This document shows positions 18,271 to 31,978 of a stretch of DNA of 64,000 bases, in pieces. The translations under genes were made by a program, and so were the position numbers. Under the pieces are notes generated by a model. That model had not been told where the DNA came from. It saw only the letters and a list, made by a program, of their open reading frames with translations, and made no database searches. Each line of letters opens with the position of its first letter. Positions within the stretch are counted from its first letter, which is position 1. This stretch comes from Planctomycetota bacterium. GTDB taxonomy: Bacteria > Planctomycetota > UBA1135 > UBA2386. The stretch is from positions 1,280,001 through 1,344,000 of the forward strand of contig JBKAGP010000001.1 of NCBI GenBank assembly GCA_046290465.1. The letters are read 5' to 3'.

Positions 18271-18420
18271 ATGCTCTGCGAAACCCTCACCACCGTCGGC
18301 TGGGTATTCATGCTCGGCTCGATCGGCGCCGTCGGCACGCTCGTCGTCTACTGCTACAAGCGCATCCTGACGCAGCCGGAGAACGACGAGCCGGACCTGC
18401 CCGGCGGCCTCGGTCCGTAG
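18271..18420 (+). CDS. 49-aa single-TM protein, putative small subunit of the NSS transporter
   Basis: AGGAG at 18257-18261 precedes ATG 18271. Translation: MLCETLTTVGWVFMLGSIGAVGTLVVYCYKRILTQPENDEPDLPGGLGP*. Confidence 0.75.
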   Translation: MLCETLTTVGWVFMLGSIGAVGTLVVYCYKRILTQPENDEPDLPGGLGP

Positions 18421-18504
18421 TCGGCCCGACGCCAGCACGGACGTCGCGGCAACTCGTGCTGGAGGGGTGCCGTCGCGTCGGCGACGGCGCCCTGCGTTCG
18501 CCGG

Positions 18505-18909
18505 CTACTTCTCGGTGGCCTTGCCGGACTTGACCCAGCCTTTGTAGCCCTCGCGCAGGTGCTGCACGTTCTCGAACCCGAGCTCCTGGAACGTCGGCAG
18601 CGCACGGCTGCTTCGGCCACCGGAGCCTCAGTGCATGACGTAGGTCTTGCTGGGATCGAGCGTCTTCAGCTGCTCGACGAAGTCGGCCGCCTTGCAGTCC
18701 ATCAGCACCGCTCCCGGCAGGTGCCCCGCCTCGAACTCGGCCGGCGTGCGGATGTCCAGCACGACCACGTCGGGGTCGGAGGCCATCAGCGCCGCGGCAT
18801 CCGCGACCGAGATGTCGGGGTAGGCAGGCTCGGCGCTCTCGGCGCGCTCGGGATGGGACTTGCAGGCGGCGAGCGCGAGCAGGGAGGCGATCACGATGGT
18901 GGTTCGCAT
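18505..18909 (-). CDS. Rhodanese-domain lipoprotein with selenocysteine (TGA 18628-18630) at the catalytic position
   Basis: Lipobox LAAC and rhodanese motif VLDIRTPAEFEAGHLPGA. Reading through TGA gives YVMH-U-GSGGRSSRALPTFQELGFENVQHLREGYKGWVKSGKATEK* (TAG 18505-18507), which completes the domain. Confidence 0.9.
18597..18611 (-). promoter_or_regulatory. Candidate SECIS hairpin of the rhodanese gene
   Basis: mRNA GCAGC-CGUGC-GCUGC at +17..+31 after UGA, with G near the start of the loop. An alternative hairpin (GGCU..CGG-UGG-CCG..AGCC) is also possible. Confidence 0.45.
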
Positions 18910-29510: not shown

Positions 29511-30578
29511 CTACTGCATGCGCAACAACGGCCCGTCGTCGTCGCGGGACACGAACCGACCTGCGATGGCGTGCGCTGGCACCCCGGCATCGCGCAGACG
29601 ATCGCTGAGCGCCTGCGCCTGCGCCTCGGGCAGCGCGATCAGCAGGCCACCGGACGTCTCGGCGTCGAACACCAGGTCGGCGAGCGCCTCGTCGACGTCG
29701 GTGCCGATCTCGACGCGAGCACCGAAGTGGCGCTTGCCGCGCGCGCAGCCGCCCGACAGCGCCCCCGCACGGACCAGTTCGAGCGCCCCTTCCATCAGCG
29801 GCAGGCTGCCGCTGTCGACGACCAGTTGCAGCCCCGCACCCTCGGCCATCTCGCACGAGTGGCCGGCGAAGCCGAAGCCGGTGATGTCGGTCGCGGCGTG
29901 CACGTCGAACTCCGTCGCGATCTCGGCCGCGGCCTTGTTGAGCGTCGCCATCACCGCCATCGCGCGTTCGGTCATCGCGGCGTCAGCGGCACCGGCCTCC
30001 ATCTTGTCCTTCTTCATCGCCGTCGACACCGCGCCCATGCCGAGCGGCTTGGTGACCAGCAGCGCATCTCCGTCCCTGGCGCCGCTGTTGCGCCAGAAGC
30101 GGTCCGGGTGCACGACACCGGTCACCGACAGCCCGTACTTGATCTCGCTGTCGACCACGGAGTGGCCGCCGCACAGCGACGCGCCCGCCTCCTCGGTCTT
30201 CTCGAGGCCACCGGCGAGGATCTCGCCGAGGATCTCGACGTCGAGCACGTTCGGCCAGCCGACGATGTTCATCGCGGTCAAACAGCGGCCGCCCATCGCG
30301 AACACGTCGGACAGCGAGTTGGCGGCGGCGATGCGTCCGAACCAGCGGGGGTCGTCGACGATCGGCGGGAAGAAGTCGAGCGTCTGCACCAGCGCGCGCT
30401 CGGCGTCGATACGCAGCACCCCCGCGTCCTCGAAGCCGGCGTGGCCGGCCAGGAGGTCGTCGTTCGGCGTCGCCTTCAGCTTGTGGAGAACCTGCCCGAG
30501 GCTCCCCGGCGGCAGCTTCGCTGCTCAACCGGCGCTGGAGGCGTAGCGCGTCAGGCGCAGATCAGGGGTCTCGGTCAT
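29511..30578 (-). CDS. selD: Selenide, water dikinase containing selenocysteine (TGA 30525-30527)
   Basis: MTETPDLRLTRYASSAG-U-AAKLPPGSL continues in frame into EDAGV, QTLDFFPPIVDDP, AANSLSDVFAMGG, GGHS, LTKPLG-like, TDITGFG and DAETSGGLL. Confidence 0.96.
30492..30515 (-). promoter_or_regulatory. Candidate SECIS hairpin of selD
   Basis: mRNA CUGCC-GC-CGGG-GAGC-CUCG-GGCAG at +10..+33 after UGA; the loop starts with G at +21. Confidence 0.6.
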
Positions 30579-30586
30579 GGCTTCCT

Positions 30587-31978
30587 TTATGCGTGCAACG
30601 CCTGCCGAACGGCAAGGGCGACGGCGTCGAGATCTTCGAGCAACAGCGTGCGCGCATCGAGCAGCACCTTGCCGTCGGCGACCCGCGCGAACACGCTGAC
30701 CGGCTGCGCGGCACGCAGCAGGTCGCACTCGCGGTCCCCGCCCGCGAACGCCGTCGCGAAGCTCGGCAGCGGCTTGGCGGGGTTGGCGCCGGACCCCGCG
30801 AACGAGTCGCTGCGCACGACCTCGGCGCCGTGCTCGGAGAGCAGCATCGCCAACGCCTGCGCGCGCTCCTCGAGGTCCTCGGGCGTGGCCGACAGCATGC
30901 GCAGCGTCGGCACGGCCTGCAGCGGGTCGCCGTCGCGGTAGAGCAGCAGCGTCGCCTCGAGCGCCGCGTGGGTCAGCTTGTCGCAGCGCATCGCGCGGTA
31001 GAGCGGGTGCGCGCGGCAGCGCGCGACCAGTTCGCTGTCGCCGACCAGGATGCCGCACTGCGGGCCGCCGAGCAGCTTGTCGCCGCTGAAGCAGGTCACG
31101 TGCGCCCCCATCTCGAGGCTGGTCGCGACGCGCGGCTCGTCGACGAGGCCGGGCAGCGGGTCGTTCCACAGCAGGCCCGAGCCGAGATCGTCGAGCACCA
31201 GCACCTCGCCGTCCTGCGCGTCGGCCAGTTCGCGCAGCTCGCGAACCGACGGCGTCGAAGCGAAGCCCTCGATGCGGAAGTTGCTCGGGTGCACCTTCAG
31301 GTAGGCCGAGGTGCGCTCGGTGGTGGCGCCGCGGAAGTCGCGCAGGTGGGTCTTGTTGGTCGCGCCGACCTCGACCATCTCGCAGCCGGCGCGCTTCATC
31401 ACGTCCGGCACGCGGAAGCCGCCGCCGATCTCGACCAGTTCGCCGCGCGACACGACCACTTCGGTGCCGGCCGTCAGCGCCGCCAGCATCAGGGTCGTGG
31501 CCGCGGCGTTGTTGTTGACGATCAGCGCGCCGCCGGCGCCGGTCAGGTCCCGCAGCAGCCCGGCCACCGCGCACTCGCGCTGGTCGCGCACGCCGGTGAT
31601 CGGATCGACCTCGACGATCGCGTAGCCGGCGGCGCCGGCCATCGCGTCGATCGCGGCCGGGGCGAGCGGCGCCCGGCCGATGCCGGTGTGCAGCACGATG
31701 CCGGTCGCGTTGTAGACCCGCTGGTGGCGACGCCGCTGCAGCACCTCGCAACGCCGCGTGATCGTCTGCACCAACGCTTCGGGCCGGCACTGCGCCTCCA
31801 TCGCCCCCGGGTCGATGGCGCCGTCGAGCGCGCCGCGGCGCAGTTCGTCGACGAGTTCGCGCACGACGCGCGTCAACGCGGGCTTCGGCAACGCCGCCAG
31901 CGCGTCGTGGCGCAGCAGCTGGTCCACCGATGGCAGGAGTCGCAGGGCGGCAGAACGGTCGGCGTCGGTTCTAGGCAT
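30587..31978 (-). CDS. selA: L-seryl-tRNA(Sec) selenium transferase
   Basis: LRLLPSVD, NATGIVLHTGIGRA, VNNNAAA, SRGELVEIGGGFRVPD, EVGATNKTH, KVHPSNF, DLGSG, FSGDKLLGGPQ. Confidence 0.96.
   Translation of the reverse strand: MPRTDADRSAALRLLPSVDQLLRHDALAALPKPALTRVVRELVDELRRGALDGAIDPGAMEAQCRPEALVQTITRRCEVLQRRRHQRVYNATGIVLHTGIGRAPLAPAAIDAMAGAAGYAIVEVDPITGVRDQRECAVAGLLRDLTGAGGALIVNNNAAATTLMLAALTAGTEVVVSRGELVEIGGGFRVPDVMKRAGCEMVEVGATNKTHLRDFRGATTERTSAYLKVHPSNFRIEGFASTPSVRELRELADAQDGEVLVLDDLGSGLLWNDPLPGLVDEPRVATSLEMGAHVTCFSGDKLLGGPQCGILVGDSELVARCRAHPLYRAMRCDKLTHAALEATLLLYRDGDPLQAVPTLRMLSATPEDLEERAQALAMLLSEHGAEVVRSDSFAGSGANPAKPLPSFATAFAGGDRECDLLRAAQPVSVFARVADGKVLLDARTLLLEDLDAVALAVRQALHA

Follow-up and report, generated by a model that had tools for sequence, protein, structure and literature searches.

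A planctomycete gene for a predicted rhodanese lipoprotein with an in-frame UGA, very likely read as selenocysteine, at the catalytic position

An interrupted rhodanese frame and its active site

In the genome of a Planctomycetota bacterium (GCA_046290465.1), a minus-strand gene for a rhodanese-like protein is cut short by an in-frame TGA, raising the question of whether the gene is broken or whether its internal stop is read as an amino acid. We analyzed this locus within a window of 64,000 nucleotides (contig JBKAGP010000001.1, positions 1,280,001 to 1,344,000), in whose numbering all coordinates are given. The frame starts at an ATG (18909-18907), reaches the TGA as codon 94 directly after ...LDPSKTYVMH, and then runs on for 40 codons, GSGGRSSRALPTFQELGFENVQHLREGYKGWVKSGKATEK, before it ends at a TAG, giving a read-through product of 134 residues in which this TGA is the sole in-frame one. 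The N-terminus, MRTTIVIASLLALAAC, contains a single basic residue, a hydrophobic stretch and a lipobox, LAAC, whose Cys is residue 16, and the Pfam Rhodanese model (PF00581) matches residues 37-127 with 72.4 bits (gathering cut-off 22.2, E 4.5e-20). The first-pass annotation, made from the letters of the sequence alone, had read this stretch as a hidden selenoprotein, pointing to an ORF that ends at the TGA after YVMH, the 40 further codons up to the TAG, the resulting single rhodanese domain of 134 residues, the N-terminal lipobox, a hairpin at +17..+31 after the UGA and the presence of selA and selD in the same window. All of these features were found again, the hairpin as GCAGC-CGUGC-GCUGC in exactly that interval (Table 1). 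We conclude that the gene is not broken and that its internal stop almost certainly encodes selenocysteine (Sec) at the active site.

Table 1. Features of the candidate Sec-rhodanese gene and of the selenium genes in the window
Feature	Position	Strand	Basis
Predicted Sec-rhodanese lipoprotein precursor, complete CDS	18505..18909	-	Translation with TGA = U: 134 codons plus TAG 18505-18507
Predicted signal peptide with lipobox, M-R-T-T-IVIASLLA-L-A-A-C16	18862..18909	-	Sequence: positive n-region (R2), hydrophobic core, LAAC
Rhodanese homology domain, residues 37-127	18529..18801	-	Pfam, AlphaFold2, Foldseek
In-frame UGA, very likely Sec 94, at the catalytic Cys position	18628..18630	-	Alignment, orthologues, contigs
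Active-site loop U94-G-S-G-G-R99-S100	18610..18630	-	Alignment columns, secondary structure of the model
Candidate SECIS core, GCAGC/GCUGC stem (5 bp), CGUGC loop	18597..18611	-	+17..+31 after the UGA
selD (selenophosphate synthetase)	29511..30578	-	TIGR00476, 352 bits against a cut-off of 125
selA (L-seryl-tRNA(Sec) selenium transferase)	30605..31945	-	TIGR00474, 453 bits against a cut-off of 267.9; Pfam SelA 8.2e-109

The interruption falls on the catalytic position of the domain. When the target and one orthologue were aligned with 52 full-length Cys-type homologues, the column of residue 94 held Cys in 52 of 52 (motif C-x-S-G-x-R-S), which places the TGA exactly at the catalytic Cys, as the first-pass annotation had proposed. 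The loop columns C94, S96, G97, R99 and S100 are invariant or near-invariant in this alignment, in which D52, R54, E58 and G121 are invariant along with R99 and S100. Rhodanese sulfurtransferases have a six-residue active-site loop (C-x4-R), whereas Cdc25/Acr2 phosphatase-type members have C-x5-R. The loop of the target, U94-G-S-G-G-R99, fits the six-residue sulfurtransferase type and aligns ungapped with CQSGGRS (1tq1) and CGSGFRS (6mxv), two solved sulfurtransferases found as sequence matches. An AlphaFold2 model of the read-through product has a rhodanese fold with a mean pLDDT of 90.1, rising to at least 96 over residues 30-134, and in it U94 ends the strand 89-93 and opens the loop ahead of the helix 98-109; residues 1-29 have a low pLDDT (about 61), as expected for a signal peptide and tether. 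The best Foldseek matches are the rhodanese domains 3tp9, 3gk5, 3ilm and 6mxv, with a probability of 1.00, and Sud (1qxn) was also found.

Conservation across the UGA and the decoding machinery

Searching 60 related genomes with stops read through, we recovered an orthologue with exactly one TGA, at the identical codon position, in 11 of 14 genomes of the same genus; the three genomes of this genus that yielded no orthologue are 71%, 84% and 74% complete. With this genome included, the TGA stands at the identical codon in 12 of 12 loci, and the frame runs on as U[GQR]SGGRSSR.LP...ELGF...GW. The gene ends in ...EK (...HK or ...AK in three) followed by TAG or TAA, at the same position in all 11 loci that reach the gene end, and none of the 11 full-length orthologues has a stop or a frameshift downstream of the TGA. 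The remaining locus (L016) is cut by a contig end and was left out of the codon alignment and of the phylogenetic tree described below. In the codon alignment of the 11 full-length Sec forms, the 40 codons that follow the UGA had a dN/dS of 0.241 and the 64 domain codons that precede it one of 0.283, dS being usable in 51 and 46 of the 55 pairs, respectively. The 40 codons past the UGA are under purifying selection: conservation continues beyond the TGA, as the selenoprotein reading had called for, and relatives have TGA or Cys codons at this position, with neither TAA or TAG nor decay after it.

The codon itself is accurately known. Contigs from three independent studies (strains 95-99% identical) match at 18628-18630 without a difference, carrying TGA and not TGC or TGT, and the variant nearest to the TGA among them is a synonymous TAC>TAT at 18640. 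A contig from an RNA library (run X18) covers just 18649-18895, ending 19 nt before the UGA, and possibly stems from DNA carry-over; it is therefore no evidence of expression or read-through. In public databases, about 45 protein clusters of 82-105 residues all end in ...KTYVMH, and relatives from Planctomycetota stand in GenBank as rhodanese-like proteins of 90-92 residues, bearing out the expectation that pipelines would call the gene truncated.

The genome is equipped to decode UGA as Sec, with selA, selB, selC and selD all above curated cut-offs. As had been asked of the rest of the genome by the first-pass annotation, both selB (353.7 bits) and tRNA-Sec (72.8 bits, anticodon TCA) were found, and selD has an in-frame TGA of its own at 30525-30527 (...YASSAG-U-AAKLPPG...). 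TGA is the ordinary stop of 2 of 13 checked genes, and 11 genes besides selD and the rhodanese gene have no internal TGA; the genetic code is thus not globally changed. The selD/selA pair lies 11 kb from the rhodanese gene, with housekeeping genes in between. Together with the conservation described above, we regard it as very likely that UGA94 encodes Sec.

In a phylum-wide sample (400 genomes and this one), a close homologue was present in five others, all five of them Cys forms. A quick maximum-likelihood tree (IQ-TREE; 68 rows, SH-aLRT, unrooted, database fragments left out along with L016) united 11 Sec forms and one Cys form from a neighboring genus in a clade with an SH-aLRT of 97, the Cys form being 50-52% identical to the Sec forms. 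In the tree, Cys-type lipoprotein rhodaneses from the same bacterial family surround this clade, whose inner order is not resolved, and among the genomes searched the Sec clade is confined to one genus. A single change from Cys to Sec near the base of the genus would account for this pattern, with reversion as the alternative in this unrooted tree. No close Cys paralogue was found in this genome, where the sole other rhodanese match is 28% identical. Scans of a sequence collection for relatives returned only distant Cys-type rhodaneses (27-58% identity), using back-translated patterns that were tailored to the target sequence and cannot match a TGA.

A candidate SECIS hairpin and the reading of the UGA

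Bacterial SECIS elements are stem-loops soon after the UGA with a G or GU in the apical loop, which lies roughly 16-37 nt from the UGA. RNAalifold gives the candidate at this locus, GCAGC-NNNNN-GCUGC at +17..+31, as its consensus structure, and all 12 of the 12 orthologues keep it intact; the stem has 5 bp (-7.5 kcal/mol), and the loop, at +22..+26, contains GU. The loop reads CGUGC in eight orthologues, AGGUC in one and AGGUU in three, GU being kept in all. The stem also leaves a trace in codon usage: among 27 columns with an invariant residue of at least fourfold degeneracy, only 4 are codon-invariant, and 3 of these 4 are stem codons (hypergeometric P = 0.0014), namely Ser100 (AGC), Ser101 (AGC) and Leu104 (CUG). 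No such constraint is seen in the Ser, Gly, Arg and Pro codons on either side, which vary freely. Codon preference could explain part of this freezing.

Measures of structure as such gave no comparable signal. The hairpin is not unusually stable (z = +0.69; 147 of 200 shuffles fold as well or better), an alternative pairing beats it in the single-sequence fold, and across the orthologues of the hairpin no pair has changed on both sides. Three additional lower-stem pairs were rejected because 4 to 11 of the 11 distinct rows leave them unpaired. No Rfam SECIS model matched at the gathering threshold, and a search of 18480-18680 at E up to 10 returned only a 10-bit chance match to a Ruegeria sRNA. 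In this genome of 70% GC, a hairpin of at least 5 bp is as frequent after in-frame TGAs as after control codons (48% each), and the bare presence of a hairpin is not above chance.

A second signal lies in the sequence of the loop. When 131 coding-flanked in-frame TGAs of this genome were compared with 37,776 TGC/TGG control codons, loops with GU were enriched after the TGAs (AGUU 28-fold, CAGU 15-fold, CGUG 5.3-fold, GGUC 4.8-fold). CGUG-type loops followed 6 of the 131 in-frame TGAs against 324 of the 37,776 controls (Fisher P = 0.001), in a class that was chosen post hoc and whose six TGAs include the rhodanese gene itself. Four of the other five CGUG-loop genes read through as plausible selenoproteins, one of them a 95-residue HMA lipoprotein whose UxxC metal site contains U and whose loop is likewise CGUGC; the fifth is an O-methyltransferase whose TGA looks like an ordinary stop. 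The hairpin thus draws its weight from the frozen synonymous sites and the loop sequence, and it is likely, but not proven, to be a SECIS element.

Set against these results, the other ways of reading the codon fare poorly. Were the TGA a true stop, as current annotation has it, the gene would be a remnant or pseudogene with a 93-residue product, and the 82-105-residue products that gene callers and GenBank list in about 45 clusters would be taken at face value; such a product would be without the active-site loop and two helices of the domain. This reading is scarcely credible in the face of the low dN/dS downstream, the absence of stops and frameshifts in all 11 full-length orthologues, the conserved terminal stop and the conservation of the TGA itself, whereas decay would scatter lesions. 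A sequencing or assembly error that turned TGC or TGT into TGA is refuted by the contigs of three studies, by the 11 other genomes and by the clusters ending in ...KTYVMH, leaving this explanation with next to no probability. Read-through by near-cognate Trp, Cys or Arg would yield a full-length protein without selenium, in keeping with a downstream frame that is clearly translated and with a hairpin that has neither covariation nor special stability. We nevertheless consider it very improbable: the Sec machinery is complete and selD itself uses UGA for Sec, the UGA falls exactly on the one residue where Sec replaces Cys, the stem codons show no synonymous change and other UGA genes have the loop as well, and a catalytic Trp or Arg would inactivate the enzyme, although 12 genomes retain the codon. 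We therefore retain Sec as the reading of UGA94, a recoded codon at the catalytic position with selection acting on the sequence downstream of it.

Predicted export and function, and relation to known rhodaneses

The lipobox consensus is [LVI][ASTVI][GAS]C, and the N-terminus, MRTTIVIASLLA-LAAC16, fits it. The column of the lipobox Cys (column 25) is invariant in 11 of 11 full-length orthologues, of which 10 fit a relaxed lipobox pattern, the exception reading SFGC, and lipobox-like signals are likewise present at the start of Cys-type relatives from this bacterial family. The lipoprotein machinery is complete in this genome, with lgt (130.1 bits, or 189.3 with a neighboring match in the same frame) and lspA (81.2 bits against a cut-off of 73.95). 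The sequence thus suggests an exported lipoprotein anchored in a membrane. Of the first-pass proposal of a membrane-anchored, extracytoplasmic seleno-sulfurtransferase, the Sec at the catalytic site has held up, while the anchoring and the sulfurtransferase function are read from sequence.

Taking these elements together, we think it quite likely that the gene encodes the 134-residue precursor of a lipid-anchored, extracytoplasmic single-domain Sec-rhodanese, lipoprotein export and sulfur transfer included. We infer the steps from selenium incorporation and lipidation to location, substrate and acceptor as follows. SelB and Sec-tRNA(Sec)(UCA) would decode UGA94 as Sec, guided by the in-frame hairpin 17-31 nt downstream, and the precursor would be exported by the Sec pathway. 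Lgt would acylate Cys16 and LspA would cut ahead of it, after which a flexible linker of about 14 residues would hold the domain at a membrane. The selenolate of U-G-S-G-G-R-S could then attack the sulfane sulfur of thiosulfate, polysulfide or persulfides, and the resulting enzyme Se-S(-) intermediate would hand the sulfur to an acceptor. Sulfane-sulfur transfer via an enzyme Se-S intermediate is the predicted function because of the six-residue loop and the matches to Sud, to PspE-like and to plant single-domain sulfurtransferases.

The gene neighborhood gives no functional clue. The order of an aaRS gene, a DUF1648 gene and the rhodanese gene, followed by a convergent small ORF and an SNF symporter gene, occurs only in the closest relatives; divergent orthologues are flanked by unrelated genes, and no selenium genes adjoin the rhodanese gene in either group.

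A genuine exported Sec-rhodanese might instead serve in redox or chalcogen handling, for example as a thiol oxidant of the selenenic/sulfenic type, like over-expressed PspE, as a detoxifier, or as a surface carrier of selenite-derived selenium, like ExtH-ExtI of Geobacter. The many further proteins of this genome that look like exported thiol-oxidoreductase selenoproteins (TlpA/AhpC-like, Thioredoxin_7, HMA and MsrA-like) and the link of the rhodanese-like lipoprotein ExtH to selenite uptake and reduction, as described in the available part of PMC6148476, are what give this idea its weight, and the absence of a conserved partner gene fixing a sulfur pathway agrees with it. Against it, the loop matches classical single-domain sulfurtransferases without a gap, the ExtH model scores only 15.8 bits against a cut-off of 200, selD and selA stand 11 kb off behind housekeeping genes, and the orthologues are not beside selenium genes. 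We accordingly judge a redox or chalcogen-handling role to be unlikely and keep sulfane-sulfur transfer as the predicted function.

The protein could also be imagined as an outward-facing chalcogen relay of a selenoprotein-rich planctomycete, a speculation to which we give little credence. Outside the cytoplasm, zero-valent sulfur or selenium drawn from thiosulfate, polysulfide or selenite would bind to the selenolate as an Se-S or Se-Se adduct, and the relay would pass it on to uptake or envelope-redox systems of the cell. In that case a selenoprotein would feed or protect the selenoproteome of its owner, most of which is exported, and this specialization would be marked by the change from Cys to Sec at the base of the genus.

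The locus reveals neither a new mechanism nor a new kind of system. Its value lies in correcting a recurrent error of public annotation, in which about 45 clusters and several GenBank records stand as fragments of 82-105 residues, and in adding a member with predicted lipid anchoring and extracytoplasmic location to the Sec-rhodaneses. Alongside the other recoded genes of this genome, at least a dozen in number, it suggests that this marine planctomycete genus puts Sec mainly in envelope proteins, and the Sec and Cys forms within one clade make a compact natural pair for asking what selenium buys a sulfurtransferase.

Sec-rhodaneses as such are not new, as the first-pass annotation had noted. 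Sec-containing rhodanese-related sulfurtransferases have been on record since 2005, when the Sargasso Sea selenoproteome was described (PMC1088965), and were also reported from Olavius symbionts (PMC1976440), and a 2026 review distinguishes five Sec-rhodanese forms, UxxS, UxxG, CxU, UxxG and a TsoB fusion (PMC13188914), as far as the available passages of these sources go. Forms 2 and 4 of that review, with MBM9537886.1 and MCY3690685.1 as exemplars in the passages available, are the UxxG forms. The target motif U94-G-S-G97 is likewise UxxG, a likeness of motif alone, and it thus belongs to a kind of Sec-rhodanese already known; as those passages present them, forms 2 and 4 share with the target a single rhodanese domain, Sec at the position of the catalytic Cys and a status of bioinformatic prediction only. 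The available passages of PMC13188914 contain none of the terms Planctomycet-, lipoprotein, signal peptide, periplasm and exported, the planctomycete selenoprotein list in S9 Table of PMC4807772 has no rhodanese, and a literature search for 'periplasmic rhodanese' with 'selenocysteine' found no paper. The literature searched agrees with the idea that this lineage's lipoprotein form has not been described before, though this is not proof.

Curated family models place the protein outside the named groups, and when four Sec forms of the clade were scored, every NCBIfam model stayed below its cut-off. NF041203 (rhodanese_LYCAU, 'rhodanese-related (seleno)protein', form 3, CxU) likewise represents a family of small rhodanese selenoproteins with an NCBIfam model, but membership was rejected at 37.6 bits against 115 for the target and 39.6-47.1 bits for three orthologues; in contrast to the CxU form, the target reads M-H-U and has no Cys two residues ahead of U. 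TsoB (NF045694) was rejected at 18.3 bits against 805. ExtH, described in the available part of PMC6148476 as a rhodanese-family lipoprotein of the Geobacter extHIJKL cluster tied to selenite uptake and reduction, resembles the target in that a lipoprotein anchor, predicted in the case of the target, holds a rhodanese domain at the cell envelope. Identity with ExtH was rejected by the score given above (NF040901, a model of 430 positions), and as described there ExtH belongs to a conserved conduit cluster whose Sec is in ExtKL and not in ExtH, whereas the target has no such cluster.

Among the nearest known proteins are two periplasmic single-domain rhodaneses, PspE of E. coli (PDB 2jtq) and Sud, the polysulfide-sulfur transferase of Wolinella succinogenes (PDB 1qxn), both exported, with a catalytic domain of about 100 residues, the same fold and the same loop length. 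Both were found as sequence matches (1qxn, E 3.4e-8; 2jtq, E 1.4e-4), and the Foldseek TM-score to 1qxn is 0.66. The target is not a PspE orthologue, since its scores lie far below the PspE cut-offs (TIGR02981, 16.6 against 126.3; NF007627, 18.1 against 102). PspE and Sud are soluble Cys enzymes, whereas the planctomycete protein very likely has Sec in place of the catalytic Cys and is predicted to be lipid-anchored.

Candidate selenoprotein genes elsewhere in the source genome

Judged from sequence, the number of selenoprotein genes in the source genome appears to be well above a dozen, and most of them seem to bear export signals. Three TlpA-like paralogues of the AhpC/TSA-Redoxin type (L215, L220 and L226) have the UGA within a common motif (...DFWG[FD]W-U-[PG]PCRAM...) and share a 7-bp hairpin of the GAGCG-GUC-GCUC type, which has the loop GGUC and begins at +25 in each gene. 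In two small HMA-like genes the UGA falls in the metal-binding motif, and one of these (L219) encodes a lipobox (LVAC) and has a CGUGC loop in common with the rhodanese gene. Further read-through candidates are listed with these genes in the table.

Features discussed in this section (G000:C1, contig of the source genome)
Feature	Location	Strand	Detail
L215, TlpA-like	G000:C1 2896767
L220, TlpA-like	G000:C1 3673738
L226, TlpA-like	G000:C1 5113979
L219, small HMA-like	G000:C1 3216715-3216999		...DISP-U-LQC...
L211, small HMA-like	G000:C1 1516135-1516467		...GLG-U-GGT...
L224, MsrA-like	G000:C1 4807444		...GMS-U-FWEG...
L212, AhpC-TSA_2	G000:C1 1724890		...HFG-U-LFT...
L228, deiodinase/Redoxin-like	G000:C1 6461678		...SYT-U-PPF...
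L218, Thioredoxin_7	G000:C1 3206721		...APW-U-GWC...
L221, FG-GAP propeller	G000:C1 3756620		...W-U-C...
L227, FG-GAP propeller	G000:C1 5536341		...W-U-C...
selD	window 29511-30578	minus	in-frame TGA at 30525-30527
Rhodanese codons 89-93	window 18631-18645	minus	ACC TAC GTC ATG CAY
49-residue ORF	window 18271-18420	plus	directly 3' of SNF-family symporter gene
2-base deletion vs window	window 18949		between DUF1648 and rhodanese genes
L022, Cys-type rhodanese	G034:C1:27165-27482		lipoprotein, another genus
Partial rhodanese copy	G010:C36:41469-41603		residues 90-134, TGA included
Weak rhodanese match	G052:C2:3132-3440		one TGA inside

Sequence context of the selD and rhodanese UGA codons

The selD product is itself a predicted selenoprotein (...YASSAG-U-AAKLPPG...), and immediately 3' of its UGA lies a GCAGC-GAA-GCUGC hairpin whose stem sequence is that of the rhodanese hairpin. 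In a codon alignment of rhodanese orthologues, the five codons preceding the UGA are nearly frozen at synonymous sites too, with GTC in 11/11 and ACC in 10/11, a pattern that could reflect a codon-context requirement for Sec insertion.

Neighbours and relatives of the rhodanese gene

The 49-residue ORF keeps its position in four sister genomes, at 68-90% identity, and its product may work with the SNF-family transporter, as a small subunit or as a partner. The intergenic deletion recurs in the contigs from each of the three independent DNA runs. It falls in the promoter-proximal spacer and represents either variation between strains or a minor error in the assembly.

A read-through search of related genomes recovered a second, partial rhodanese copy in one sister genome (78% identity), and a genome from another family gave a weak match (26% identity). 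The Cys-type L022 was placed within an otherwise all-Sec clade (SH-aLRT 97) of an unrooted tree, and is either the sister lineage or a Sec-to-Cys reversion.
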